Source: Botryllus schlosseri (taxonomy: Eukaryota). From it: 64,000 nt of DNA. This document shows, one piece after another, positions 184 to 60,378 of this stretch. Below the pieces are notes generated by a model. The model made no database searches. It saw only the letters and a program-made list of their open reading frames with translations, and was not told the origin of the DNA. Position 1 is the stretch's first letter. Each line of letters starts with the position of its first letter. The stretch spans positions 8,186,001 to 8,250,000 of the forward strand of contig CM119371.1 of NCBI GenBank assembly GCA_051294905.1, in the 5' to 3' direction. Made by a program: the position numbers and the translations under genes.

Positions 184-425
184 CTATCTCAGCACACGTT
201 TTATCCGCTCGATAGTATCATTGTCAAGATTGCAGAGATCAAAGCTGAAATCATCCCCCACGAACGTCTTGTTCGTGGAGTCCATGACGAAGCAAGATAT
301 GTCCAATAGCGTTTCAATGTTGGTAACTTTTGACAATCTCGCCGCCAGTCGAACAAGCACGTGCGGCACATGTGAAAGTGGTGTGGCAGCACGGTAATCA
401 ACTCCACCCGACCCAGTTGTGGAAT
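184..425 (-). CDS. Terminal exon of an AF9/ENL (MLLT3/MLLT1)-family protein; ANC1-homology (AHD) domain
   Basis: Translation ..HVLVRLAARLSKVTNIETLLDISCFVMDSTNKTFVGDDFSFDLCNLDNDTIERIKRVLR* parallels the AF9 C-terminus as recalled ([56 protein letters not shown]), notably FxFDLCxLDxxT. Acceptor taacAG at 427-426, phase 1. Confidence 0.72.
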
Positions 426-1288
426 CTGTTATTATCTCATAGTAAAAGTTTGCAGTTTATTTAGCTGATAAGTAGGGCAAGTTTTTGTTGCAGTTAAATC
501 CGTGGACAGTCGCATTTATTTTTGACAAAAGTTGCTGTAAGAAGTTGCGCTAGAAGACGACATTTTGCTCGGTTGACTACAAAAAAATGAAGAAGAAGGT
601 CAACTTCTCAGTTCCACTCCCGAAATACAGCTTTCTATCAGCATTCTCTATTGATTGACTAAAAAAAAGGTCAACCTTCCGGCTCAGCTCCCGAACTACC
701 CGTAAGAGCGTTACTTCAGTGCAGTCGAATTTGGCAGTACATTTTACCAAAATTAAAAATACGTTCATGAAAAATAGAAAAACATGCAAAACTTGCAAAA
801 ACTTGCTTTATTGATAAGATTTATAAATTATCAATTACAGAATTATTAATCTGATCATGACCCGAGTAATAAAAGTACAACGTACATTGTGCAAATGAGC
901 AGTTCATAATTACAGTGTCGGTTGGCTTAGCTATACAGTGTACATTTCTTTTCGAACTGATGATCAAATCCACCACCATTGTTGGATTCTATATTTCTAA
1001 TAATTTAAATCATTATTGATTCCAATTCATCGCTAATAAGAAATAAGTCCGGTAACGTTTGGTTCATAGTACTGCGTTAATAATGCCAGTGTCCAGTAAA
1101 GCGATAAACATACATTTACAAAGATTATAAGATTGGTTTATATCAATGATTCAACCTTGGCTCCGTAACGGGTGGAATCGGGGTGTGTACATAAGGCTCA
1201 AGCTCAGATGGTTGGTATAAAAACCCTGAATGTGATTAATACATTAAAAGTAGCAGATGGCTAATTAGTCGAGCGGCCGAGATGGATG

Positions 1289-20980: not shown

Positions 20981-22379
20981 GTTATCTATAGTAATCTAGA
21001 GTCTGTCAGCCGTCAGTAACATCTGATGCAGCAACGAAGACATGGGTGCCGCCGTGCCGGCCTGTGACGACATAATGAATACTTGTCAATTGTCGATAAC
21101 ATCATAGTTGCACTAGAACGCACTATACTCCGTGCCATTGCTGTGTCCAGCATTAAAATTCTGATGCGGCGTTTTAACACTGGCACTGTACTCATTAACA
21201 TTAAGTCATACAGCTCAATTCAATATTCAAATGTGCGATTATTATTCAACTGTAACTGTAGTAAGAGCAAAATGGCCGGATATAACGACGGGATCAATAG
21301 AAATTCGATTTGTACCAAATGGCCAATGGCTTGACGTTCGATATTGGTGCACTCGTTACCAGTCCATCCGGCGTCGATCAAGTTTATCGGAATAATATTT
21401 TCCCGTTGAAACGGATCGAATGATCGAATTAAACACTGTCCCATGCACATTGCGCCATGCCCATAACGAATTACACTATGCAGTGGGCACATTGCACATT
21501 TACAAGTTTACGAAACAGATGATTACAAATTGGAAATCGCGCATCAAATCAGTAATTTGTCTCCAACATAGATACCATGAGGTTTGTGGCTATTCTTCTG
21601 TCATCCCCTATTTGAGCTCGAAAATCCTCACTAGAGTGAATGACAAGGATGCGCAGTAATGAATTGCAATTAGCATGCATAATTGCCTACTCGCAATAAT
21701 ACTGTCCAATTTCGCGGGCCGACTAAAGAACTATCACGAGTATTTGCTCATCCGAATTTCTCGGCTCGTGCTCGTCATATCGACATGTACAACGAAATCA
21801 CGTTTTTAACCTCTCTCCCATTTCGCGTATTACATAGTGATCATTATTTTCGAACCGTCTACAGTTGGCCAACAAGGTTGTGCTGATGATGAAATTGCGG
21901 GTATGCCGAATACCCACAATATTCACAGGCATATTTCGCATACCGAGGTTCGGCATTCATGTATGAAAATTGAACATCGAACATACGACTGCTCTGCTGT
22001 TAAACCCCCAGAAACATGGTTAGTCGGAAAAGGTAGCGCCAAAGAGGAAAAGATTCTTAATTTCGCGAAGGCCTGCTGTTGAATTATGTGAACTCAGCAG
22101 ACATGGTTGTTGCATATATAATAGCATCTTATGAAATACGTCGGAGCCGGAGCTACCCCTCAAATACCTGGCTCCAGCTCCGGCTCCGGCTGAATTTTAT
22201 GTGAAGCTCCGGCTCCGGCTCCAGCTCCGGTAAAAATGCACGGCTCCGGGGCTCCGGGCTCCGGCTCCAAAGCCCTGCTTGACACCTCCCAATTTTGTAA
22301 ATACCATCTATTGCTGTTACACTCCGTTCATTGAAAATTTGATACGTTTTCAAAGGTAGCATCATTTCATGTTAACAAG

Positions 22380-23797
22380 CCTCATCTACTACTGATATCT
22401 CAGAAAATGTCCTTGAACTGGGCAATAAATACTTGATGGTGGATACTGAATATTTCACTAAGCGGGTCGAAGTGTACCCGATGAAGGACCTTCGAGTTGT
22501 ATTAGCAGCCGATATTCTTGTGACGGAATTATTTTGTAAGTTGGGCGCACCGAATATTATCCACACTGATCAAGGAGTGCAATTTGAATCCACGTTATTT
22601 CAAGAAATGTGTGAATTGTATGAAATTTTTAAGACTACATCTACTACTTTTCTACCGCAATCCGATGGGTTAACTGAGAGAAATAATATGTCCATTTTAC
22701 AGATGTTGACCAGTTATGTGAATGAGAGTAGATCTGATTGGGAAGTTCATCTGCCACATTTATTACAAGCTTGTCGTTCAAGTGCTCATGATTCCCCTTA
22801 GTACTCTCTTAATAAGTTATTTCGTGGTCGTGAGGTTTCCTTGACGAGTGATATTGTTTATGGTAGACCTGCGAAATGTACGTCGTGCAAATGTTACACT
22901 GAATATGTCGAATAGTTTTCTGCGGCCAGTGTTGATGCTTTTAAATTGGCACGTGAGAAATTGCGTAGATCTGCTGTGAAACAGAAAACGTATTTCAATC
23001 GTTATGTTGATTCGCATGAATTTTATGTCGGCTCTTACGTTTGGTTTTATCAGCCGCTGAGCATAGGGAGTTTTCCTCTGGTTGGAATGGTCCATGGCAA
23101 GTTGTCGAGAAATTAGAAAATATCGTGTATCGCATTCATAATATCGACACTGGCAATTTTCGCATAACCCCTGTTGATAATCTCCATCCCTTCATTGTTG
23201 AAGGTGAAGAGGATTTACCACCAGTCACCGGCAGAGTCTGCAAATTATGAAACCGTTGTCATACGTGCTGCCTCTTCCAATTGTGAAGTTAATGTCATGC
23301 GCAGACGTAATCGTATTCGACCATGTATATTTGATTGACTATGTGACAGACTTCAGTTGATCCACCTATTTCATGTGATTGCTTTTTCTGTACATATTTT
23401 CATTTTTATTTATTTTTGCTCCGGCCTTGCCGCCTGTCAGTGATCTTTCTTCCTCCTAGCTCACTCAAGTTGGGAGGGGAGAGGTAGCCTATAACCACCC
23501 GGATCCGGAAGCTTGGTGATCCCCGGTTGGGAGGTCACGTCGGCGGAAAAAAGGAGAACTGTTACTGGTTTGCTTCTTCTGCTACGCAACTTTATAATTG
23601 ACTGCTGCTTTTGAGCAATACACAATGTGAGTTTGCACTCGATCGAACCTCTCATTTCAGTCTCGAACCTGAAAGAGAGTGGCATCATCTTCTGTGAGGT
23701 AGATAGATTATTAGAAGAACAGAAGACAGGACGGCCACAATACATAGAACTGACCTTTGACTGACTGCACTGCTCCAGAATCTGATCGCCGTTCACA
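22380..23797 (+). mobile_element. Gypsy LTR-retrotransposon 3' remnant (integrase core, GPY/F module, PPT, possible LTR)
   Basis: EYFTKRVEVYP..GAPNIIHTDQGVQFES..PQSDGLTERNN..DWEVHLP; then WNGPWQVVEKLENIVYRI after stops/frameshift; purine tract gggagggggagagg at ~23471; candidate LTR ends ...gttcaca at 23797. Confidence 0.85.
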
Positions 23798-29059: not shown

Positions 29060-30560
29060 AACATTAGCAATTTTATCAGTCAATACACCACAAAATGCGA
29101 TACAAAGAAAAGATAGGAAGGTGTCGCAGCGACTTGGAGTAGTCTATGTAATCAGACACCCACCTTGGCCTAGGCGATGTAAAGAGGAGGCATGCACACC
29201 GAATGAAAAGTAAAGAAGATAGTATAGAAAAAAGCAAACGACAAAAAAGGGGTGGGTGGCATGTCATGGAAGGCGAGATCGATAGATCAGTCGTGGTCAG
29301 GCAATCTTGAGGATGGACAAGTATTTATTTAGTAGTAATTGCTTGTATTTCGACTTCAATGTGGACAGGCTCGTCGACTGTCGGATGGCCGACGGGATAC
29401 TGTTCCACACATCAGGTCCGGCAGATTTGGAGCGATGATCTTTTCGATCGATCATATGATATTTGGACGACGTGGACGCGCGCTTTTGATTCAGAGGTAA
29501 AAAGTCATTGGAATATTCGGGGCAACGACCGCAGTGGAACTGATACATAAAGTTAGCGATTTCTAGTTTCCGCACATCTTCTATGTTTAGGACACCGAAT
29601 CTCTTCAGCAGCGACTTGTTGGATGGACAACCAGGCCCCTGTGGGGCTCTAGCTATGATACGGAGTACCTTATGTTGTAGTTTTTGCACTGGATCGAGTG
29701 CCAATTTATTGGCAGCCCCTCAACAAAGGATGCCATATTGTATCTTCGATTGGATTAAGGATTTAAAGAGTATCAGAATAACCCTGGCTTGCATGAAGCG
29801 TCCAAGGCTGTAGAACAGGCGCACTTCGGTGATAGTTTAGTGTCTAGGGACAGAATATGACTCTTCCAGGACATGTTCGAGTCCAGTAAAACCCCGAGAA
29901 ATTTGGCATTATCGGTGTTGGAAACAGGCTGACCAGCGACGTTAACGGTTAGGTTATTTTTTGAATTTACTATCAGCAATTGGGATTTCGAGTCGTTTAT
30001 GCCAAGGTTATTTTGGGCAGTCCACTCGTGCACTTTGGGCATTTGGTCACCAGTCAAGGCATCCAGCTCTGCCGTTGAAGATGCAGAAGAGAGGAGGTGA
30101 GTATCATCAGCGAACAGTGTGGTGTTCAATGAAGAGGTTTCAAAGAGGTCGTTGACATATAAGGTGAAAAGGGCCGGTCCAAGTACTGAGCCTTGGGGTA
30201 CACCACAGGTTACCAGGTGAGGAGAGGACAAGGTGTTTGAGATTGCAATTGCAATTGGAAATGAGATGCACGGTGCGATTCCTGAAACGTCGAAATCTTT
30301 CTCGTTCATTTTCTGGGCAGTTCTTGGTGTTTATTCGGTTATGCCACCGGTTTCGTTTACGGATAAGTTGAATCAACTTTGTGGTCATCCACATATTTCG
30401 CTTCAATTTTTGTTTACTTCTCAATATGCGCTGCAGAGGTGCAAATTGTTCCAGCAGTGATTTGATAGCAGACCTAAACTCTACATATTGTTCGTCAAAG
30501 TTGCTTATCGAGAGGGTCCTGGGTGTTAAACTGTCCAGTCCTAGGCACGTTCAAGTTGGT
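29060..30560 (-). mobile_element. CR1/L2-group LINE remnant (reverse transcriptase and 3' UTR, internally deleted)
   Basis: GVPQGSVLGPALFTLYVNDL..LFADDT..KFLGVLLDSNMSWKSHI; C-terminal LQHKVLRIIA..GPDVWNSIP; upstream WMTTKLIQLIRKRNR joined directly to the late RT region, so the early RT is missing. Confidence 0.9.
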
Positions 30561-45468: not shown

Positions 45469-47436
45469 CTATATATGCAAGCCTCTCCAAAAGTATTTTC
45501 AATGGTGAACTAAAAATTTGGTAATTGCGCTTACGCGAGAAGCACACATATGTTATTATATATGGACTCGCAGTGTGGGGAACAATGAAGAAAATGTATA
45601 TATTTTGCCCTAAATTGCATTTAAATTTGTATTTCGTCATCTGTAACCGTATTGTGAAGCATTTGGCCTCCAACTCACCCAGTACTAATACTTGGATCAT
45701 TGTAGCGCATTTGACGAATCCCATGTAGTTTACTTCTATGACAACTTCACTAATAGTTTTTTTTTGTGACTTTACGGTGAATTGGAATTAGTTTATGGTC
45801 CCTTGTATAATCGTTGGAATACAGAGTTAATATATTTCATTTAGCGAAAAACTTTAAAACGAACCCAAAGCTGAACTGACAGTCAAGAGTAAAGCACGAC
45901 CGATTTGATTTTGGAGCAGATACCGATAAAACATATACCCGCGATATATTCAGCCGATATCCAAAATGTAGGTTAGGGATCTTTTCCAATTTTATACGAA
46001 AAAAATAAGGAATCTCAAATTTCTTTGCATTTCCTCATCATTCCGTTCCGTCCAGATTTCAATTGAGCTGAAACATTTTAAAACCGTAATCGTAAGTATG
46101 ACTTCGCTCTTTACGTTAGGAATTGCAAGTGACAAAATTGTAGTTATATTCCCTGCATATCAACATTTTATTAAGAACAAGGTGATCATGCTATTATACA
46201 TACTACCATAGAAATGTAGGCCCTATTTGCAGCTTCATGTTTAAAACAAATAAAATAAAATACCCAAATCAGTTAATATTCAATTTACACGTAAAGAAAG
46301 TTATTTCATCACTAAGTCGCCCGATCAAACACTATAGCTCTGATATATTCCTAATGTTAAAGTCATATACCGTTCAATGGAGTTTTTTCCTGTCTCTATT
46401 TGGAAATGCAGACAGCATTGCTATATTTCTAGAATAGCTTCAAGAGCCACATAATATTTCTAAAGCGGATACTGGCTGACGACTCTAAATTGGGAGCCAG
46501 CGAATACCACTGCACATAAAATATGCCGTGGTAACACTGTCGCCGATTCTTCAGTGGTTCGCATGGTTCCTAGCTTAAATATACAATTCTCGAATCACAT
46601 GATCCATACCCGCACCGGGTACCGTATTTGTAGTGACAGCTAAATTTGGTACATGATTTCACCTCTTCGTGAAATAAATCTAGGTAATAGAAAACTGATA
46701 TGTGCTGCAATTGGTGACAGAGGTACATGAAAAATCTTCCACAACATTTCCTATGGTCGATTAATTGATGAGATTTTAAAAAAAGAAGTGAAATGAAACG
46801 ATATCGTAAAGCCTTGGATAGTTTAAGTGATATGGTCCGCGATATGTATCATGTCGCAACCAAACAAGCAGAATGCTTGATCGCTGTATCATAGTGTATC
46901 AAAGTACGGAAAGTTTTCTAATTGTAAATAAATAACGGTCACATTGCGATATTGCTGATTGCTTTAGAATCTAACATTGTGGACTTTATGTTAAGTTGAG
47001 CCGTTACAGATTGACAATATATATGAGCATGGGCAAATACGGTCGATAGTAAAAGCGTATTTTCAATCCAAAATATGTCTGTGCGAGTCAATTATCACAT
47101 ATATTTCAGTAAGAAAGAGCGCTATTATAATAAAATCAAAAAACGACGTCGCATTGAGGCGCTCGCAGCGCGAAGAAAATTTAAACTCGGGAGTCAGTTC
47201 GTATAGATTCAATTTTCATGTCGACGGCCGTCAACACGTTATAATTGAATTACGTGACCACGACCGCACAAATTTCCAGCTACGGCCGCAGGTTGGCCAC
47301 CCCTGACTTAGATGTAAGTTATCATAACAGCTTAGAATATTTATTCTTGTGGTAGCTAAGACAAAGTCTATGTGAAGTCACAACAGTGGTGAACCCATTT
47401 CAAAATCCTGATATTTAGGTAAAATTGAATAATATC

Positions 47437-49905
47437 TTCATATTGAAATGAGCCCGAATATTTTCGGCTGACACTCGTCAAGGGTAATCGTCAGCAACTA
47501 GTAGAGAATTGGAAAGAATATTGCATTAATGTATATTAGGGCGGTTCAAAAATAACCTTTTTTCTTTAATCTTGCGGGTTACTTGATTAAATCGTTAGGT
47601 TGCTTTAAAAAACGACGCACAGCAAATTTGAATTCATTCCAACCAATATTCGCGGATTTCGTAGAGTTTGAAAATTTTGAATTTGCCTAAAAATGCAAAA
47701 AAAATTGTATATCGACAATCGTATCACAAAATATGACGTCACCAGCATGAAAGAGAGAGCGTTCAATGTACTATTTTTAGGTGGTACACGAACTCCTTTT
47801 ATTGACAGAGTTTTGGTCGGTGTATTTTGATAAGAGTCGACTCCGAGGCACACAAATGGAATTGTGAACGGTCGCGCGCAACTATTCGAAATCGGTCGTC
47901 TCGATAATTATTCGCACTAATCGGATTATGTAACAGATGTTTGCCGATGGCATAATTAATGGCCTTTGATCAGTCAGCATCAATCTTAAGCGGATGAGTT
48001 AGGGTGTACCAGGTAAAAATAGTACATTGAACCAGCGTGTACTCAAAGGTGGTGTTGCCACTCGGAAAATCACGTGACTGTCACGCCCAGATGCATTTGA
48101 TGACTTTGCTAGTATCGATCCGTCTGCAGCAGTAATTAAAGGCGAAGTCGCTATTGGTCTTTGTAGATTTTGACTGTGTTCCATATCGAGTTGGGTGACA
48201 GGATTTGGTATGGTATATTTTGATGCTGTCATCCAGCACTGTACCTCGTTTCAAGGCTGTGACTCAATGATTAGCGTAATAATTTATCTGCCAAAGTCGA
48301 GTATCTGGTAGATGAGCGCGCACCGATACATTGCCGACTTTGATAACGGAATTACTATGTTAATCATTGAGGGACAATCCTGAAACTTACTGCGAAGTTG
48401 TATAACACAACCAAGATATACCATACCGAATTTCGTCATCCATCTCGGTATGGAACACTTTGAAAGGTCACATATACCAATATCAAATTTCGCGAAAATT
48501 CCTTTATGCGGTAGGCTCAATGCCAAATCAGCGCACGCACACCCTGGAAACTAGACTTCGATAACGTACTTACTACTGTAATTATCGAGTCGCAGCCTTG
48601 AAACTTGGTACAGTGTTAGATTCCCTCACCAAGATATATAATAGCCTACGAAATTTTGTTATCCATCGCCGTATAAAATTCATTCAAATTGTACACATAC
48701 CAATACCGGCTTTTGCGAAAAATCTTATATGCGGTATAGGCTGAATGCCAGATCAGCGCGTACCCTGACATACTCGACTTTGATTACGAAATTGCTACCG
48801 TAATCATTGAGTTACAGCTTTAAAACCCGATACAGATCTATATTACGAAATTCTGTTATCCATCGCGAAATAAAATACATTCAAAACTTACATATAGCAA
48901 TTCCAGCTTTTGTGAAAAATCTGTCATGCGGTAGGCTGGATTTCAACTCAGCGGCCAACCTGATATACTCGAATATGATATCTAAATTACTATCCTAGTC
49001 ATCGACTCACACCCTTGAAAATTGATTCAGTGTAAGATGCAATCATCTGGCCTTCAGCCTACCGCATAACAGATTCTTCGCGAAAGACAGTAGTATTAAT
49101 ATGTGTATATTTTGATTGTGTTCTATATGGCGATGGAAAACAAAATTTCGTATTATATACCTTGATGAGGGAATCTAAGACTGTACCAAGTTTCAAGGCT
49201 GTGACTCGATAATTACAGTAGTATGTACGTTATCGAAGTCTAGTATCCAGGGTGTTCATGCGTTGATTTGGCATTGAGCCTACCGCATAAGGGAATTTTC
49301 GCGAAATTTGATATTGGTATATGTGAATTTTCAAAGTGTTCCATACCGAGATGGATGACGAAATTCGGTATGGTATATCTTGGTTGTGTTATACAACTTC
49401 CCAGTAAGTTTCAGGATTGTCACTCAATCATCAGCTTGGTAATTCCGTTATCGAAGTCGGCAATATATCGGTGCGCGCTGATCCAACAGATGCTCGACTT
49501 CGACAGCGAAATTACTTCGCTAATCATTGAGTTACAGCATTGAAACTTGATACAGTGCTAGATGACAGCATCAAAATATACCATACCAAATCCTGTTACC
49601 GAACTCGATATGAAACACAGTCAAAATCTACAAAGACCAATAGCGACTTCGCCTTTAATTACTGCTGCAGACGGATCGATAATAGCAAAGTCATCAAAGG
49701 TATCTGGGCGTGACAGTCACGTGATTTTTCTAATGTCCACACCACCTTTGAGTACACGCTGAATAAACGCTCCCTCTTTCATGCTGGTGACGTCATATTT
49801 TGTGATACGATTGTTGATATGCAATGTTCTTTCCAATTATCTACTAGTCGACGATTACCCCTGACGAGTGTCAGCCGAAAGTATTCGGGTTCATTTCAAT
49901 ATGAA
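47437..49905. mobile_element. Older palindromic element hosting the 48033-49761 foldback
   Basis: 47437-47527 pairs with 49819-49905; 47709-47790 pairs with 48003-48032 plus 49769-49825; fragments of the family at ~20470-20660, ~52690 and ~55800. Confidence 0.75.
48033..49761. mobile_element. 1.73-kb foldback element with degenerate internal subrepeats
   Basis: cagcgtgtactcaaaggtggt/accacctttgagtacacgctg; arms ~48033-48750 and ~49040-49761 (mirror ORFs 48232-/49562+ and 48526-/49268+); TSD degraded. Confidence 0.9.
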
Positions 49906-50288
49906 TATACTATTCAATTGTATATTGCAGTTCTGTACCTCCAAGAAGCTCTGCAATACCGGATGAAATCCTGAAAAAATGGTAATTTTTTCTCAATTCG
50001 TGTTCGATTGACTAAAATAAGGCCAACTTTACGGCTCATATCTCGAAATAGCCGCCGGAGCGTTCGTTACTTCAATGCTGATTTACTGCATGTCAGTCAA
50101 ATTTTTTGCATACAACATTCTAAAAGAAGAGTACATAGGGGCATCCTCTGAGGACACTATCAAAAAAGTAAAAAAGGGGACAAATCCTCTTAAAAGAGGA
50201 AGTGTGGTACCCCTAACATAGAATGTTATTATATATTTTCAGTATTGTCATATACGCTAGCTAATTAGTATACCACGTTATCAAGACC

Positions 50289-50364
50289 ATGGCAGAAGGA
50301 TGTAAATATAACAATTCTGATGTCGCTGATGTCAAGGCTACATCAATATCGCCCGAAATAAGCG
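50289..50364 (+). CDS. NLR gene, first coding exon
   Basis: accATGG context; MAEGCKYNNSDVADVKATSISPEIS; G|GTGAGT donor, phase 1. Confidence 0.6.
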
Positions 50365-50585
50365 GTGAGTATCCCAATGTCTGTATTGAGCTCAGACTAC
50401 TTAAAATACATGATTATATTATCCATCTAAAACAGCTGAGAAGTAATTCAAATACCGTACATTTTGCTCGTTGCGCAAATAATATTCCGAAGTATATCGA
50501 AGAAAATAAAAGAATTCATATTATTTTCTAATAAGGCTGTGTATGGAACCTGGCAAGCAGAGCAATAATAATGTGCTTTTCATAG

Positions 50586-50732
50586 GATCCGCAACTTTGG
50601 CCGAAGGAGAAAATGTCAATCTGAATTTCACAATGAGCTCTGTTAATCTCGTGGCCAGAGATCAAATCAATGCGAACAAGATCGTCTACAATATTACAAG
50701 AGCTGAAGGAGAAACACCTTCCGGGATTATAA
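50586..50732 (+). CDS. NLR gene, exon 2 (N/Q/V/I-rich N-terminal motif)
   Basis: gcttttcatAG acceptor, A|GTCAGT donor, 147 nt, phase 1-1: GSATLAEGENVNLNFTMSSVNLVARDQINANKIVYNITRAEGETPSGII; joins exon 1 and the NACHT exon in frame. Confidence 0.6.
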
Positions 50733-50889
50733 GTCAGTATAATGCTCTTTCATACAATACGGTGTGCATATTTAAGATAATGATCTGCTGAAAGTGCCTT
50801 TTCAATGAATTTCTTATGAGAAATAGCAATGATTGGGAGAGCGTGTCATCCAAGTTACAGCGATGTCATATCGATATTGAGCTCTGGAA

Positions 50890-51330
50890 GACACAAAAAT
50901 CGTCTCAAGTTAGACAAGGATAAAACTGAACTCATCATTTTTACGCCAACCAGACGCCCCATCGACCGCAATCTATTCACCATCAGATTTGGGCCAGACA
51001 CCATCCAAACCAAGACCTGTGTACGTAACCTAGGTATTCACTTTGACGGCATGATCTCAATGGAAAAACATATCGACTATACATCAAAGATCTGTTTCAT
51101 GTATATCCACAAGATCAGTCGAATCAGGAACTACCTATCTGAGGATGCATGCAAAGCCATAATCTGTAGGTGGTGATATCACGGCTTGACTATGGAAATG
51201 CTCTACTTTACGGGGTAAACCAAAATTGCATCGACAGGCTACAAAAGATCCAAAACATCGCTGCTGGTTTGGGAACTCGGTCAAAGAAGCGTGATCAGTG
51301 ATCACGTAACGCCGATTTTTGTTGCATTTG
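50890..51330 (+). mobile_element. L2-clade LINE C-terminal fragment in an NLR intron
   Basis: NRLKLDKDKTELIIF..VRNLGIHFD..ISRIRNYLSEDACK, frameshift, ISRLDYGNALLYGV..LQKIQN..HVTPI. Confidence 0.85.
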
Positions 51331-51974
51331 GAAAGTTGCAGTAAAGATTTGCATTTATAATTTTTTGATATATCAGGGTATTAGATACTCGAAAAGTTTA
51401 AGATTTGCAGGGTGTCTGTTTTTTTTTAGCTTCTTTGTTCGTTATTCAATGAATCATGAATACCATTTTATGCTGTCAAATATGGTAATTTCTTATTTCA
51501 CGAACGGCCTGGCGAGACCGCTGAAACTCACATGTCTTGCTGGTACGCAGCAAGAAAGTAACGCAACACGCGGAAGTAATTTTCCGCGAAAATCCATGCA
51601 TATCCATAAAACAAGTCAAGTATCACGCACCTGAAACCCCTAGATTTGCAAACTTGACCCAAGGCATTGCAGCAATACGCAGTGTTCACGACTTCAACAA
51701 AATCAATATCCTGAAAAGGTAACCCAGTGAAAGTGTCATTGTCAGCGGTCTCGTTTGAGCGTCCGAATTGAAGGACGTCAGATTGAAACGAAAGTGAATA
51801 AATCAAGCGATTTATTGTATATATATAGAGAGAGAGAGATCAGGCACTGTCGTCTTTGGATGTGGTTTTTCAACTTCTTGGTGCAAGCCGTTGCGCCGTA
51901 GATATCATTAATATGCAGCTAATCCATCACATAGCTCTTTGTTGAGCAAATCGAGCAGAACTGATACTGATACT

Positions 51975-53130
51975 GTTACTGACTATCGATCTCGTTTTCA
52001 GTGAAATGCCACTCCATTTTTTCGCTTGCTTTTTTTCTGTACTACTTTAACATCTCATTCAGTGTATATGCCTCCTCTTTACATCGACTAGCCCAGGGCC
52101 GGCCAACCCGTGACCCGCGCGAAGGTTTTGAGTGGCTCGCAAGGCAATTCTTGAAATTACTTATAATATCAAAAAATGAATTAGCCAGGTAATTTATTGT
52201 AAACTTGCAAGAGCAACCGAAAATATGATTAGCCTGGCCGCCGATATTGGGACGTTAATGACTAAAATATCAGTTCCGACGTATTGGCGTAGCCAGGGGT
52301 CCTCCACATTTTCGTAGATCTTCGTATATGACCATCAACTAGAATATTTCAGATTTATCAGATTTATTTGACTTAATATTTTACAGCACTGTGTGCGATC
52401 TATTGCTTTTAGTATTGTTGCCTTCTCATGGAAATCAAAACTACGCCTAATTTACGGAATTGAGTGTAACTATATCGGCAATTATGCGAGAATGTGTGGT
52501 CCGACATTCGACTTGGCGACTGCGCTCCCGGAAAGATCGTCAGCGATGAAAATTTGCACAAACTGACAGACGCACGTTCACTTAATCCTTCGATATTGAT
52601 ATGTCAAGGCGCCGATTAATCATGTCCTGGCCAAATGAGCCCAGCAGTATACAGGAACGACCCACCACAATATATACAACTAACATTATTTTGAAGAGCT
52701 TCTTGGAGGTACAGAACGTCAATATACAATTGTATAACATTATTTTATTGACCTATCTTTCATTACTTTTGAGAAAATTCGCGCATGGCGCGGCTACGAC
52801 ATGTACAATTGTACATATAGTGTTCGTGACATAAGTGTTACCATATTGATTTTTTTGTTTATAGTATATAATTCCTTTTTACCTTTACCTAATCCGATTC
52901 GCTCTTATCAGACGACTAAAAGGAAATCAACATACAAGTGGCCCGCGCAATGCTTCGTAAATATTATGTGGCCCTTTAGCCGAAAAGGTTGGCCACCCTT
53001 GGCCTAGGCCAAGGTGGGTGTCTGATTGCAAAGACTACTCCATGTGGTTTCGACACCTTCCTATCTTTTTACTGCGTCGCAATTTTATGGTGTATTGAAC
53101 TGATAAGAATTGCTAACAAACCGAACCGAA
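51975..53130 (+). mobile_element. 3' UTR fragment of the 29-30.5 kb LINE family, split by a hAT MITE (52094-53001)
   Basis: gcctcctctttacatcg..|..cctaggccaaggtgggtgtctgatt..ggtgtattgaactgataa matches the reverse complement of ~29065-29290; MITE cagggccggccaacc/ggttggccacccttg. Confidence 0.8.
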
Positions 53131-53239
53131 AGAGAACCATACCAGAAATAGTTTTATAGCATGTTTTTTTAAATTACTCCTTTAAATTTTGAGCAATACT
53201 TGATAAAAGTTACAATAATTTTTTTTTCTGCCGGCGTAG

Positions 53240-54778
53240 ATTACTGGAAATTGATAAAGGTTATAAACGACCATACTCTACAAGAAACGGCAAATGGCAT
53301 TCGCGAAGACTTCAAGAATGAATTTCCTCACGAACCTGACTTCGAAGTTTTCCCGCAGATGAAAAAGTTTAATGCTGATGAATACTACAAAGGCCGTATT
53401 CACGAACAAAAATCTTCAAATGATGAATCTGTTCTTGAATCTAGAAAGAAAGCTTTTAAAAGTCAGTTGATAGAGGAAATCGGGTTTTACCGTCAATCCG
53501 AAAATTACGGTAAACCGATAACAATGGAAGAGATAATGGAATGGCTGTCAAAGTCCGAGAAATTACCTCATGACAACAAAGTTGGTTACACTGCAATTGT
53601 CGCTTCTGCGGGATCGGGTAAAACTACTCTCGTGCGTAGAATTGCACAGAAAGCGCTCGTAATTCCCTCCGCGAAGGAAAAGGATGAAGCGGTTCCGTTA
53701 AGGAAATCTAATCTCTTCCGTAGACTTGTCCGCATGACTCTCCGAACTTCTTCTGGCATTGAAAAAGGTAAGCAATCTTCTTCCGAACCGAAACCGAAGC
53801 AAAAAATGATACATTACGTCGAATTGAAGAACATGAAAGAACAGAACTGTATGAAAGCATCCAAATTCATATTCGGCGGTCTGTTTGAAACTGAGTATGA
53901 AGAAGATGAATCTTTCAAATGGCTGCTCGAGAATCAATCCAAAGCAATTATCATTTTTGATGGGCTTGATCAAGTAAAGTGGGATTTTGAGGAGTCTACC
54001 GTACGAAATATAAGGACGTTTGAAAAAGCGACTACGTCGACCATCATGTACAACATCCTATCACGCAGAATTCTTCCCCATGTCAAAATCATCGTGGCGT
54101 CACGTGAATTCAAAGTCTCCGAGTTACCGGCGGAGGCACGTCCGCAAGATATTATCACACTTACCGGTCTCACACTGCAAGACGCTTCTAAACTGTTTAC
54201 TTGTCTGCTCTGTGAGAACGGGCAGCGTCTCTGGAAAAATATTGAAATCATGTCACCGCGATTAATACAACTAGTATCGCTCCCGGTTTTCCTGATTTTG
54301 ATAGCAGTGGTGATGGGAATTGATCCAGATAGACCTCCTCCGTCTACCGTGACAGAATTGTACAGCAGGATCATGTTAGTATTACGGAGTGTGGAAAATA
54401 TCCGAAACCGTAAGCAAATCCTCTCGATTATCAACAAATTGAAGGAAATGGCGTTTAAAGGCATGAGAGAGGGACGAGTCGTATTCTACAAGGCAGATTT
54501 GGATCGGTTTAGAATATCGGCGGACGAAGTACAGGATTTGATGACGAAAGTGCCTGGCAACAACATCCTAAGCCGTCACTTGATGGAAGGCGACTTCACA
54601 TTCTTCTTCTGTCATCAAAGCATGCAGGAATTTCTGGCAGCTAGTTTTATCTCGGAAATGGAGCTCGAAATGTTCATTCGCTTTGATGGCCAACATCTAC
54701 ATGAGAAACGATGGTCCGTGGTTCGAAGATTCGTTACAGGCATCGTTTACATGAAATCTAATTACGATCTTCACAACG
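53240..54778 (+). CDS. NLR gene, NACHT exon (NBD-HD1-WHD-HD2)
   Basis: Walker A ASAGSGKT, Walker B IIIFDGLDQ, sensor-1 IIVASR, LPVF, WHD FFFCHQSMQEFLAA, WSVVRRFVTG; ttttttctgccggcgtAG acceptor and G|GTGAGT donor. Confidence 0.95.
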
Positions 54779-55301
54779 GTGAGTAATTATGGTTTTCCAT
54801 GGCTATTCTGCCGCATCACCGATTGATTATTATGGTCGCTTATGGTTTATCATGACTTTGATGGTATTGTCACAATGGAAGGGTGAAATAGTCGAAAGAT
54901 CTTAAATTCATACAAGGCTGGTAAATAAGTCTTTACATTCAGTCGGCTAAATATAACTTATATATCTAAAATTTGCATAAATTCGCAGATTATTGAACGT
55001 GAGCGCTACCAGGGCCCATCGATGATCACTATGTGACATTGTTTGTTTGTTTGTTTCGGGTATATATGGTGTCTGTCGACTAAAGGTGTCATTTACACCA
55101 GTCCTATTTTTGCATTTTTGAATTTGCATCCGCCGACTTGTAGCACGGCCCACTTCTAATCTTTTTGAAAGATACAGCTTCCGGAGGGTGAGCCTAAATA
55201 AACCTCCAACACTTAGGTATGAATTCTGGACCCGATCTTAGTCGAACATGCGATATTGATGCGCATGAAATGCTCTTGTTATTGTGAACTAGACATTAGA
55301 G

Positions 55302-56753
55302 CAGCGGTTCTCAACCGGGGGTCCGCGGACCCCTGGGGGTCCGCGAAGCAATTTCAGGGGGTCCGCGAGACCTCTAAATTTTCAAAATGGTTGATAACGT
55401 AATTTATATTTTATTTTTTAATTTGAGAAAGCATGAGGCAGTTTCGCACCACAACTGCTAAAACCTCATGACTCATATCATCATAATAATCGTCTGACAT
55501 GAACTATCGTAGTGTGGAAATTCATTTTCATTGCCAATTTTCCAATAACTTGCTGATACAAACATATTGCTGTTTAGAGACGTTTTGATGGGGCTTATTG
55601 ACAAAATAAAAATATGGAGATAGTAACGTCAATCAGGGTGACTTCGTAATGTCTTGTCGATTTGAAGTTGTCAGTCTCATCAAATTAGTGAACAGTCGTT
55701 TGAAATAAAAATTTCCGAAGTATTTCCCTAATTTGTCCCAATGCAGGGATTGAAACCTCGCCACGAAATCCATTTTGTCCTGTGATTACATAACCACTAT
55801 TTGAACAGTTTCTTGGAGGTACAGAACTTCAATATACAATTGAATAGTAGATTAATATTGAAATGTGCCCGAATATTTTCATAAATAGGACGATGATAAA
55901 CCTGCTCTTGAAGCTCGGCTATCAGATTTGGCGCATTCTTATTGCGGATGCCCTATCGACAAAGCTGATTTTTTTTATGAACAATAAGGGGTGTTTCGTT
56001 GCTATCAAAGCATTACGCTCCAACCCTAAAATTCATGTCACCAGTTATATTGGTATGCAGCCTTGTCTTGTTAATGTTCAATTGTTAATGGTCCAAAATG
56101 TTTGCTCGTAAATATATATGTAAACCCGAACAGAACAAGTCGTTTCGTGACAGTCTTTCTCAGGTTGAAAAACTTGGTTCCATTATTTGGCGCATAAAAT
56201 TTGTCTATACTATTAGACTAGGATTTCACTTTGACGGTGGAAACTCTCTGCGGGCCGATCAAAATGCCGTCGCGAGCCGTATGTTGCCCGTCCCTGCGCT
56301 AGATGCAGGACGTGATATCTTCATAAAATATATGTTTCTTAATTTTGGTGCCATAAATGCTGCGATCACACCAAAAGTATCGTCGGAAGCGTTATGCGTT
56401 AATACTGCATTAGCCTCCATCTATCTTTGCGGAAATGGTTTTGGGCACTCCTCGTTCATATCAAAACGAAGACGCGGATTTTCAAGACACGACCACGTAC
56501 TTCAAGAAATACAGCAGCAAAATTAGCTTTGAAATAATAAAAGTCTATCCAATTTCTACATAAATAGGATGATGTTATTTTCAAGAAAAATCGTGATTTT
56601 GCTGTTTATCACAAGCCTACAGTTAGTATTTGCACAAGACAGATGAAGGTTGCACCATAATAGAGCTAAAATTGAACAAAAACTTGAGGGGGTCCGCGAG
56701 GGTCCGTGACGGTCAAAAGGGGTCCGCAAAGCCAAAAAGGTTGAGAACCACTG
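55302..56753. mobile_element. hAT MITE (GGGGTCCGCG family) in an NLR intron
   Basis: cagcggttctcaacc/ggttgagaaccactg; perfect TSD CATTAGAG. Confidence 0.92.
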
Positions 56754-56883
56754 CATTAGAGCTTAATGACTCCATCTGAACCCTGCCTCATCACAGTCGC
56801 GTGAATTATTCAATTGTTACGTAAACGATTAGGCAAGAAACATTACGAATACCGGTACAACGACATTGTGTATTGCTTGACAG

Positions 56884-57188
56884 TGACGGATCAAACACAG
56901 AAGCAACAAGCTTTATCTCAATCGGTCCTTTCACAACTTCACGATAACGAAGACAGATATGTTCGCATGGAACTATATACAGCAATCTACGAATCGGGCG
57001 ACGACAATCCTATGAAAGATCTTTCCGTCATCGACGCATCTTATATCTCATTGAATCGCGATGAAGCTCATATCGTTGGATCGCTCGCAGCAAGGAACCA
57101 AAGCCTTCGTTCTTTGAATTTATTCAACTGCAGTATCGACGACGAGCTTTTGAGCATCATTGCAAGGTGTCTGGAAAATAGAATACGA
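56884..57188 (+). CDS. NLR gene, HD2 end and first LRRs
   Basis: ttgacAG acceptor (phase 1), CGA|GTGAGT donor (phase 0); MELYTAIYES..LSVIDASYISLNRDEAHIVG..SLRSLNLFNCSIDDELLSIIARCL (ribonuclease-inhibitor-like LRR). Confidence 0.88.
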
Positions 57189-57606
57189 GTGAGTCATACT
57201 TTTTCAAATGATTCATTTCGTGGGAAAACTATATTATGTGTTATTCTGGAATTTTTCTAATTTGGAAGCCTCCCCTCTTCAGATATGATATGGTGCAATA
57301 TTCACATCTTTTCGCGGCGATGCACTGTTCGTAGCAATCCATTCGGGGTCATAATTTCACGTCGGTTAGGCCTATTGCGGGAATCATAGCAATTTTCAAA
57401 ATCATATTCGATGGGAACGATATAGTAGCAACCTGCTCAGTGAACTATGAACATACATGATATGTGAGTATATCAGGAGTATTTTCATCGATATCACGAA
57501 CCCGACAGCGATGGCTTAAGGTATTACTTCGAAGATCAGCTACTCCACATAGTGATTTGCCATAGACATCAGCTGTTATCCCAAAAAGACTAATTCAGAC
57601 TAATTT

Positions 57607-60378
57607 AATAGGCCTTTTGCAGGACTTCGATCACGTGACTAGATACGCATAGCAACCACAAATTGGTTAGCAAGCCACTTTCTCGCGCACCTGCTTCAGT
57701 GCTAAATATCGCATAGTGTACTGTTGATTTCTGGTTGTAAACGTTTCGGAAATTTGTTGCAGAAGTCATCAGAGATTTACCTATGCTAGATGTCAATCCT
57801 GTACAAAGCACATAGAATGATATCGTCAGAATTACGCAGAAATCCGTCGTTAACGTAGCCGTATGTCTGATACAGTATATTACCGTTTCCGTGCTGTAAA
57901 CGTTTTATATAAAACGCAAGTGTCATGGAAATGCGCAAGGATTCAAATATGTTGGATGTCTTTGATTCATGAACTATGTAAACTCCTTGCGTCAAAATGA
58001 TCGACATTGTAGCCGTTATTTGGTAGTCAACTATGATTTTCTGACACAAAACTCGACATTGCAGGACATTGACTGCGTGATATTTATTGCAGCATTAAGT
58101 TAGGTGTGGATAGTATACTATACTATAGTTGTATTGTAGTTGTAGTTGGTAATCATTCCAGCATTTTGATGATTGATATCGATTGCAATATATATATGAT
58201 ACTGCTATTTTTAAGCCTATAGAGACAATGACTGGCAGTGCCAGTACGTTGATGTGTCATGAATTCATGCAATGTGCTACATATTAACCATCATATGCTA
58301 TTGTATGGCTTCTCAGTTGAACAATTCAAAATATTTAGACCTCTACACCTATATTACAAGTTATTGATCATTCTGTCATGCTGCCAAGTGCCACTACCCG
58401 AAGAAAAATGATCATCAGCTCCAATTGAGGGTGCAACAAACTGTCCCGAGGCCTCGATTACTTGATTGATTGCCTGGATTGGATTACTTCACTCTATGGC
58501 ACAGTGCAAATATCTTGAGTTTCAAGACATGGCTATAGCACATGTATACGAATTAATGATCTGATGGATTATCTCAAGAGAGTCGAACATAGGCCACTAA
58601 GAAATTGATGATGCCCTCGTCAAGAATTCAGCCTGGAGCCAATTATTATCACCCCATAAAATTCGGTCATGCGGTAGAAGGCAGCGTGGTTTCATGCCAA
58701 CAGAAAATGTCAGCAGATGATCTGACCACTGACTAACTGTCCTGAACTTCTTTCCCGATGTTGATGTCTGCTTTGAAAATGATATTTCATTTGTGTACAG
58801 CAAGACAAGCGCTCTTCCGTGGATGCTATGAATATGTCTAGACAAGTGGCTATGGAGGTAGAGGAAATTACATAGGCATAAGAGTCTCGGCAGTTATTAA
58901 ACTTGATAAGGTTAACATGCATTTTTCTTCAACTATTTCTTATGCTCTGGGTATCGAATGCACAAAAATTAATAAATTGCACTTCTTTGCAAGTTTATTT
59001 GTAAATTCAATGAATCAAATAATATCATAAGTTCAGAATATTACGGAGTCAATGCAAAAGAAATAATGTTAGTCGTCTTTAGAGGATGTTTCTGAGTTCG
59101 TCGAACCAATACACAGAGGGGGTCAGCAACGAAGTACTATTTTACCTGAGTACTAGCGTCATTATGAGTTTAGGCTACTTCCACTTCTACTTGACACTTT
59201 TAGGTAGTACTTTTTTGTCAGGTTTGAAATTTTTTCAACTAGAAAGTAGCTTTGGCGCATGATTGCATCCCCTTCAAGCATGAGGTTGTCATAACAACTG
59301 GGCAAAATAGCCCCAGTACCACGATAACTAAATAAATTTTTGAAAATTGCACCTATTTGTGGTTTCATCACCCTTTTGCGCTGATCAAGAAGATGCAACA
59401 TGCAATGTTTACAGTTGTCGCATGGCACCAATTTCTAAAACTAAGTGACCCTCAACCAAATCTACTTCATGTAACGAATTTCTTGATTACTTTTCAGAAA
59501 TTCATTTCTGCTTCCACTTGAAGTACTTTGGACATGTCCTGAAAGTAATTAGTGCTACTTGTACTGGAGTATAAATTAAGGCATTACTTCTACTCGGTTC
59601 CCAACAATGACCACGTTGACCACCTCTGGGTATAGGATGACCGATCTTGTCACTGCGTTTGAGCTGCTCTAAGAGTTATTGGATAGTTACTTCCCTTAGT
59701 TCGCTAAATAGCGCACATATGTGACATCAACTATTTATCAAAATCGCGTGTGATTTGCCAAATCCACTTCAATCGCAGTTGCGAAGTAGTGCTAATAAAA
59801 TCGGCATTGTATCATGCAACAATAAAGTGTCACATCGCTTTGCTTAGTCTTGATGGCAGGTTCTCCCAAAAGATACTTCCGATGTGTTCAGCGACATTTG
59901 TCTTATAGCAGTACGCCAGCACCCAGACCAGCAGACAGTATATCCTGATCCTTGCGGGTCCCGGCTGCTTCAGTCATATCTTCCATCCAATATGAGGCTC
60001 CACAACAGACAAATAGTACTGCTTGAACTAACAAATACTCTTACCAGAATATAAACCAATCGCTTTACTTCAAATGCATAGATTTAAGTAGGCTACATAT
60101 GATCAGAGTTGAGTACCGTAATACGACTACGTTACCGATGGATTTCTGCGTAATTCTGACGATATCATTCTAAATCCTTTGTACAGGATTGACATCTAGC
60201 ATAGGTGAATCTCTGATGACTTCTGCAACAAATTTCCGAAACGTTTACAACCAGAAATCAACAGTACACTATGCGGTATTTAGCACTAACGCAGGTGCGC
60301 GAGAAAGTAGCTTGCTAACCAATTTGCTGTTGCTATGCGTATCTAGTCACGTGATCGAAGTCCTGCAAAAGGCCTATT
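57607..60378. mobile_element. 2.77-kb non-autonomous DNA transposon with ~250-bp TIRs (possibly PIF/ISL2EU group)
   Basis: aataggccttttgcaggacttcgatcacgtg... at 57607-57862 is the reverse complement of ~60125-60378; no intact ORF; superfamily is a guess. Confidence 0.8.
59114..59628. mobile_element. Short derivative of the 18251-20980 hAT family
   Basis: cagagggggtcagcaacgaagtact...ttgaccacctctg with tactt repeats. Confidence 0.75.

Follow-up and report, generated by a model that had tools for sequence, protein, structure and literature searches.

The locus described here raises the question of what serves as the N-terminal module of an NLR when a short Asn/Val/Ile-rich exon lies ahead of its NACHT exon and no death-fold domain is recognised at that place. 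A tblastn search with 12 relatives identified this gene as the single NLR in the window (the whole stretch of DNA that was analysed, 64 kb). Its assignment as an NLR in a preliminary description of the locus was supported by Pfam matches of exon 3 to NACHT (3.4e-16, 60 bits, cut-off 26.7) and NOD2_WH (9.1e-6, 26.1 bits, cut-off 23.1), and the sequences G-S-G-K-T-T and D-G-L-D-Q, corresponding to Walker A and B, were present in the NACHT ORF. The post-NACHT/LRR part was covered by tblastn with the Styela protein P0013 from 56877 to 57242 (E = 6.5e-8), and a match to LRR_6 in the exon 4 region remained under the Pfam cut-off (E = 0.014). Among 20 matches in the search for the closest named proteins, 19 were NLR-like proteins of Styela clava with 30-34% identity over 93-98% of the query, and the 20th was an unnamed ENA protein. 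One further Styela protein matched partially (43% identity over 26%), three more were added by the closer-relative search, and 15 unnamed single-exon NACHT ORF calls from public assemblies shared 31-48% identity with the NACHT exon. The host is a tunicate, since the gene is related most closely, among named proteins, to NLRs of Styela clava (~34% identity for the best named matches); this agrees with the invertebrate chordate proposed in the preliminary description.

The predicted gene model is given in Table 1. When exons 1 to 3 were spliced by script, the joined frame was open throughout with zero internal stops, all splice sites were canonical and the phases compatible, as had been claimed for the joining of exon 1, exon 2 and the NACHT exon. 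The joined translation also bore out the N-terminus of ~75 residues ahead of the pre-NACHT region. An in-frame stop is located just upstream of the ATG at 50289, because the stop-to-stop ORF begins at 50265. Exon 2 is bordered by the acceptor TTTTCATAG/ and the donor TAA/GTCAGT, its translation (window 50588-50731) reads SATLAEGENVNLNFTMSSVNLVARDQINANKIVYNITRAEGETPSGII and contains the peptide reported before, and exon 3, preceded by a T-rich tract and GCGTAG/, opens at 53240. The motif exon and the NACHT exon (50586-50732 and 53240-54778) are both symmetric phase 1-1 exons, and these modules can therefore be gained, lost or skipped with the frame kept. For the same reason an isoform without exon 2, in which exon 1 runs directly to the NACHT exon, would also be in frame. 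Within intron 2, the plus-strand segment 50820-51176 forms an open frame of 118 aa with zero Pfam matches at E <= 10, which, judged by eye, looks like the tail end of an ORF from a non-LTR retrotransposon; the family profile found no further copy of the motif within this intron.

Table 1. Features of the predicted NLR gene in window coordinates; slashes mark exon boundaries.
Feature	Position	Strand	Description	Basis
Exon 1	50289..50364	+	76 nt, 25 codons + 1 base; phase 1 donor GCG/GTGAGT	Sequence and script
Intron 1	50365..50585	+	GT..AG, 221 nt	Splice-site consensus and reading frame
Exon 2	50586..50732	+	147 nt, 49 codons, phase 1-1; motif and short T-P-S-G-I-I tail	
Motif core, L4-T37 of the exon-2 peptide	50597..50698	+	LAEGENVNLNFTMSSVNLVARDQINANKIVYNIT	Alignments A1 and A3
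Intron 2	50733..53239	+	GT..AG, 2507 nt; contains ORFs, e.g. 50820-51176	
Exon 3 (pre-NACHT, NACHT, winged helix)	53240..54778	+	1539 nt, phase 1-1; donor AACG/GTGAGT	
Exon 4 (post-NACHT helical part, putative first LRR)	56884..57188	+	Acceptor TTGACAG/, donor CGA/GTGAGT; keeps frame	

The lack of a recognisable CARD, DD, DED, PYD or TIR, as stated in the preliminary description, was reproduced with zero matches in 282 scanned window ORFs. None of these domains was detected in the 143 ORFs of at least 75 aa on both strands of the whole window (Pfam, E <= 0.01) or in the 139 plus-strand ORFs of 30-74 aa from 38 to 53.3 kb (E <= 0.05), and tblastn with P0008, a Styela paralogue with a Death domain, retrieved the NACHT exon only. 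In P0008 the Death domain is N-terminal (E = 4.5e-5, above cut-off), and this position is therefore where the NLR family puts its adaptor module. The body of NACHT, winged helix and, putatively, LRR is common to the tunicate gene and to vertebrate and invertebrate death-fold NLRs. In contrast to those receptors (CARD, PYD, DD, DED), the tunicate gene is without a death-fold match in the window and its N-terminus is limited to the ~75 residues given above.

Exon 2 was found to be conserved well beyond the window. A phmmer search with its 48 residues against 1.84 billion representative proteins returned four matches at E <= 0.001, namely P0039 as the best (3e-11, 76% identity) as well as P0040, P0041 and P0042 (E = 1-2e-5), and a profile of these ORFs and the window peptide (five ORFs) run over 371 candidates added P0043 (5.5e-16), P0044 (2.1e-14) and P0045 (1.2e-3). 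All seven are unnamed, short and exon-sized; each ORF call, 60-124 aa long and located on a contig of 0.9-1.6 kb, represents the exon read through into its introns. Similarity to the window begins exactly at the acceptor-encoded G-S-A, and the flank upstream of it is unrelated. In four relatives, as in the window, the exon measures 49 residues when counted from G-S-A through its last residue. Beyond the exon, five of the seven ORFs run on as [QE]-[GS]-E-C-[NS], which, as far as protein letters can tell, would be the product of a G/GTGAGTG donor.

Closer examination of the alignment A1 (the window peptide and four relatives) revealed 19 invariant columns out of 48 across the five sequences, with G7, N9, N11, S17, N20, D25, Q26 and N30 as invariant polar positions. 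The family core S-x-V-N-V-V-A-G-D-Q-I (NVVAGDQI) appears in the window as S-S-V-N-L-V-A-R-D-Q-I (NLVARDQI), with R in place of the family-conserved G and, later, A in place of a second G that is carried by only two of the other four members. Conservation in relatives, on which the preliminary description had made its proposal depend, was thus observed in seven other short ORFs (E = 3e-11 to 1e-3), and the symmetric phase 1-1 exon it had pointed out has been conserved in its entirety at seven or more further loci. We regard exon 2 as not being due to chance. For both P0040 and P0045 the longest contig measures 1619 bp, and the two may belong to one locus, which would mean two motif exons together.

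Exon 2 is, in our assessment, probably a real coding exon of this tunicate NLR gene. It would be spliced to the NACHT exon, which is located 2.5 kb away on the same strand and in matching phase, and no other gene was found between the two by Pfam scans of the ORFs or by tblastn. E-P-D-F-E follows the P-S-G-I-I tail of exon 2 at a distance of 36 residues, and in six of 20 Styela NLRs P-S-G-[IV]-[LR] was present 45-51 residues ahead of this landmark. The M-A-E-G-C start of exon 1 resembles M-A-D-Q-C (P0004) and M-T-D-Q-C (P0005) of Styela, a likeness of five residues only. None of the seven motif ORFs was on a contig of a size matching those of the 15 NACHT ORFs, and linkage of the two exons in other loci is therefore unproven.

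Transcript data were sparse at this locus. A search of sequencing runs for 50250-54800 gave no matching RNA run. In four bulk RNA-seq runs (X12, X14, X16 and X17), 6-13% of each of which was sampled against 46000-60000, depth in the bins of exons 1 and 2 was 0-0.41, the NACHT-exon bin 53472-53938 was at 0 in all four, and the other bins overlapping this exon ranged from 0 to 2.18. The confirmation of the junctions 50364/50586 and 50732/53240 that had been suggested earlier was not obtained, as zero reads spanned either joint and the exon bins were near-empty in four runs at this sampling, a result that says nothing either way on expression. Reads piled up on repeats (47401-47867, 49736-50202, 55340-56740 and 57675-60000); 85-99% of the matched reads continue into unlike sequence and therefore derive from repeat copies elsewhere. 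Runs X16 and X17 also contained loose ends at 57693/57698 (+) with a template-switch-oligo-like adaptor, which mark cDNA 5' ends inside the putative LRR part of the gene, probably derived from the transcript of a repeat family.

The empty junctions and the exon 1-2 depth near zero would also be expected if exon 2 were outside the NLR mRNA, either as part of another transcript, as an optional or decayed exon, or with other 5' exons used in its place, and if the phase match were coincidental. The donor of exon 2, which is weaker than the other donors, the frame-neutral joining of exon 1 directly to the NACHT exon and the related NACHT contigs of 5.7-8 kb in which no motif ORF was found point in the same direction. 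We consider this improbable, however, given that the peptide is conserved in seven other loci with similarity from the acceptor onward, that exon 2 and the NACHT exon share strand and phase over 2.5 kb with no gene detected between them, and that the P-S-G-I-I tail is placed as P-S-G-[IV]-[LR] is in the six Styela NLRs; a phase shared by three arbitrary pieces would occur by chance in about 1 of 9 cases. By sequence comparison, we thus treat the product of exon 2 as a real, conserved and lineage-specific N-terminal module of a tunicate NLR.

The composition of the motif was analyzed for 259 core residues of eight sequences. Relative to general background frequencies, N was enriched 3.9x, V 1.9x, I 1.4x and Q 1.3x, R, L and K were depleted, G was at 0.98x and P was absent (0/259), which agrees with the N/Q/V/I-rich sequence without core proline described earlier. 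Features that define NLR-associated amyloid motifs as a class (N-terminal position, increased N, V, I and Q, reduced P, K and L, conserved G, N and Q, and beta propensity) were all found with the exception of glycine, which is not enriched. AF2 modelled the 48-residue peptide, with eight sequences, at a pLDDT of 49.5 and with zero secondary structure. According to this model the motif is non-globular as a monomer; the prediction gives no support to a beta-solenoid, yet a fold that depends on assembly would be compatible with it.

Strands were predicted at residues 11-14, 19-23 and 31-36 by a crude Chou-Fasman window. When the alignment columns were compared with themselves at 22 offsets, similarity peaked for a shift of 17 residues (z = 2.9, p = 0.004 uncorrected), which pairs G7/G24/G41, E8/D25/E42, N9/Q26, V10/I27, N11/N28, N13/N30 and V19/I36. 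This periodicity fails Bonferroni correction (~0.09) and was noticed by eye before testing, and we take it as a hint. A complex prediction with four copies of residues 26-74 of the exon-2 ORF scored 0.01 in a run without controls and is evidence neither for nor against self-association.

Comparison with known motif families gave no assignment. The exon-2 peptide matched 0 families in an hmmscan against Pfam-A at E <= 10, the RHIM and HET-s models included, and no relevant match was obtained for the five A1 members at the same threshold, with the sole match being that of one member to DHOR (E = 0.085); HMMER filters discard most matches above E ~0.1. Scoring against the RHIM profile, as had been suggested, and against that of HET-s thus left both the peptide and its relatives without a match in Pfam. 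The five-sequence profile searched against all PDB sequences at E <= 10 retrieved four unrelated chains, the best being a ribosomal protein (0.28), and a search of the ESM Atlas with the exon-2 peptide gave no usable match. According to the accessible part of the preprint by Dyrka et al. (10.1101/2020.01.06.895854), G-phi-Q-phi-G is a signature common to RHIM, PP and BASS3. It is absent from the family, which reads A-G-D-Q-I-x-[GA]-N, and from the window copy, which reads A-R-D-Q-I-N-A-N. Compared with the signature, Asp is found at the first phi, the second G is spaced differently, and neither glycine is present in the window copy. The '(A/G)RDQxN/I' core that the preliminary description had given for known motifs was not found in that part of the preprint, where the signature quoted is G-phi-Q-phi-G. 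Judged by the sequence tests applied here, with no Pfam or PDB match and no G-phi-Q-phi-G, the motif belongs to neither RHIM nor HET-s, and its earlier designation as non-RHIM stands.

The motif does share features with those of fungal and bacterial NLRs. In the same excerpt, BASS motifs are described as ~25 aa long, beta-prone, rich in Q, N, G, V and I, poor in K, P and L, and with conserved G, N and Q (10.1101/2020.01.06.895854). Like the fungal motifs (HRAM/HET-s with NWD2, sigma and PP) and bacterial BASS1-10, which span ~25-35 residues, the tunicate motif is N-terminal in a NACHT/NB-ARC receptor. It shares with them the richness in N, V, I and Q, the scarcity of P, K and L, conserved N/Q/G and beta propensity, and possibly, on weak grounds, a pseudo-repeat. 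Unlike them, it has no profile match, its glycine is not enriched and it is carried by a spliced phase 1-1 exon. In contrast to the fungal and bacterial systems, no effector with the motif is adjacent in the genome.

A closer parallel in architecture is provided by amphioxus. The available portion of Kajava et al. 2014 (PMC4262963) reports many amphioxus RHIM proteins in which the RHIM is located where CARD-like domains usually sit, among them BF82280 of Branchiostoma floridae with a RHIM-NACHT architecture, and states that tunicates appear to lack RHIMs. As in the tunicate gene, a short non-globular motif there takes the place of a CARD-like six-helix domain in a chordate NACHT protein. Homotypic amyloid-type signalling has been proposed for the amphioxus RHIM-NACHT, whereas the tunicate motif has neither a RHIM match nor a G-phi-Q-phi-G core. 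The animal NLR with an amyloid motif replacing the death fold that the preliminary description had proposed thus has a precedent in the amphioxus protein (PMC4262963). No account of the present motif was found in the literature on tunicate NLRs, NLR amyloid signalling in metazoa or ascidian RHIM, and the accessible sections of PMC12261475 and PMC8662601 contain nothing on the N-termini of tunicate NLRs. The general arrangement is therefore already known in animal NLRs, and the motif described here would be a non-RHIM and undescribed form of it.

A partner that shares the motif, as anticipated in the preliminary description, was detected neither in the 64-kb window with the family profile nor by phmmer among the 1.84 billion representatives, where only the seven exon-sized ORFs were recovered once the profile was included. 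Within the window, the profile recognised its own exon at 3.9e-30 and the next match had E = 2; no second copy of the motif is present, and the gene therefore has no adjacent effector such as is seen in fungal or bacterial systems. The missing partner, the lack of an AF2 fold and of a match to any known amyloid-motif family, and the resemblance of M-A-E-G-C in exon 1 to the Styela starts M-A-D-Q-C (P0004) and M-T-D-Q-C (P0005) would all fit a real NLR exon whose conserved motif has a role other than amyloid formation and is simply a short linear or disordered segment. Docking of a globular adaptor, an autoinhibitory peptide acting on the NACHT-LRR part or a localisation signal (e.g. with Cys5 of exon 1) are possible functions of such a segment, and the absence of two family glycines from the window copy is easier to accommodate in a tolerant linear motif. 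This is quite possible, although 19 invariant columns in five sequences are unusual for a plain linker, as are the many conserved Asn, Gln and Gly residues together with the strong N/V/I bias and zero proline, and the exon occupies the place of an effector or adaptor module. Most likely, the motif serves in homotypic assembly or in the recruitment of an adaptor.

The N-termini of the Styela NLRs were included in the comparison. Long N-terminal arrays of short tandem repeats without a recognised effector domain were observed in P0004, P0005, P0006, P0010, P0015, P0016, P0035 and P0036. They consist of a 33-aa unit in up to ~12 copies (P0004), a 66-aa unit in four copies (P0015) or, as a third type, H-A-x-x-I (P0016, P0035 and P0036), and are covered by no Pfam family. 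Between the isoforms P0005 and P0006 there is a difference of exactly 66 aa, suggestive of cassette exons. AF2 with 12 sequences modelled residues 1-370 of P0015 at a pLDDT of 21-43, which amounts to no confident fold for this array; the model lends no support to a beta-solenoid here either, and a fold that depends on assembly would again be compatible with it. Like the window gene, these closest named NACHT relatives (P0004, P0005, P0010, P0015 and P0035) are for the most part without a death fold, and their N-termini are composed of short units rich in N, V, I, Q and E that in six of 20 are followed by P-S-G-[IV]-[LR] and then the pre-NACHT helix. The window gene has a single unit, as opposed to arrays of 2 to ~12 units in Styela.

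Whether the motif is homologous to these repeats was examined as well, and this candidate was set aside as unproven. The phmmer comparison with 12 Styela N-termini of more than 60 residues yielded at most 13.4 bits, an HMM of 14 distinct units scored the exon-2 ORF at E = 3.2, and the HMM of the exon family performed no better than shuffles for 14 of 16 N-termini, with P0006 and P0007 marginal (0-5 of 100 shuffles reached the real score). We therefore assign little probability to the motif being a single-unit relative of the tandem arrays, that is, a tunicate repeat-type multivalent scaffold or spacer and not a templating amyloid. The arrays do have an N/V/I/E/Q/T-rich composition, the same position, the same P-S-G-[IV]-L landmark and a NACHT of ~34% identity, and the HMM, narrowly built on the 33-aa unit, ranked the exon-2 ORF third of 2846 window ORFs. 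That rank corresponds to E = 3.2 only, however, phmmer over the 1.84 billion representatives gave no Styela protein, and in view of these weak scores and the shuffles the similarity may be compositional.

Our preferred reading, with a probability of about 0.3, is that exon 2 and the 25-residue exon 1 together make up the entire part of the receptor on its N-terminal, effector side, where other tunicate paralogues have a Death domain or tandem repeats, and that this part acts by beta-assembly. The lineage-specific, non-globular, Asn/Val/Ile-rich motif of ~35 residues would be a homotypic assembly motif that forms beta-strands. Oligomerisation of the NACHT domain would bring several copies of the motif together, the gathered copies would nucleate an ordered beta-sheet assembly, amyloid-like or beta-arch, and this assembly would recruit a downstream protein bearing the same motif. 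Self-association of the motif and all later steps are what we infer. The mechanism would be analogous to that of the RHIM on amphioxus NACHT proteins and of the fungal and bacterial NLR motifs, and would operate outside those sequence families. Amyloid-like homotypic templating by the motif is plausible but of fairly low probability. We rate as rather unlikely the more far-reaching possibility that tunicates evolved their own non-RHIM amyloid or beta-arch motif (NVVAGDQI, possibly with two 17-residue pseudo-repeats), carried on a shuffle-ready exon in an expanded NLR family and templating an effector with the same motif.

Signalling of NLRs through functional amyloids, established for fungi and proposed for bacteria, is in animals, to our knowledge, known only via RHIM. 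If the motif does act in this manner, it would constitute, independently of RHIM, a second functional amyloid family linked to animal NLRs, and a synthesisable peptide of 34 residues offers a concrete test for the existence of more than one animal amyloid signalling family. Should it not be an amyloid, the motif still gives a tunicate NLR subfamily an N-terminal module that is new. The Styela NLR-like proteins bear the automatic NCBI names 'NLRP3-like' and 'NLRC5-like', a domain annotation that misdescribes these tunicate receptors.

Other elements were identified elsewhere in the window. Retroelement fragments are located at 22376-23247 (+) and 29776-30330 (-), with matches to rve (2.9e-7), Integrase_p58_C (1.5e-4) and RVT_1 (4e-15). 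At the left edge of the window, an ORF at 187-456 (-) contains an ANC1 homology domain (AHD, 7.9e-9) and is, judging from this domain, an exon of an AF9/ENL-type gene.
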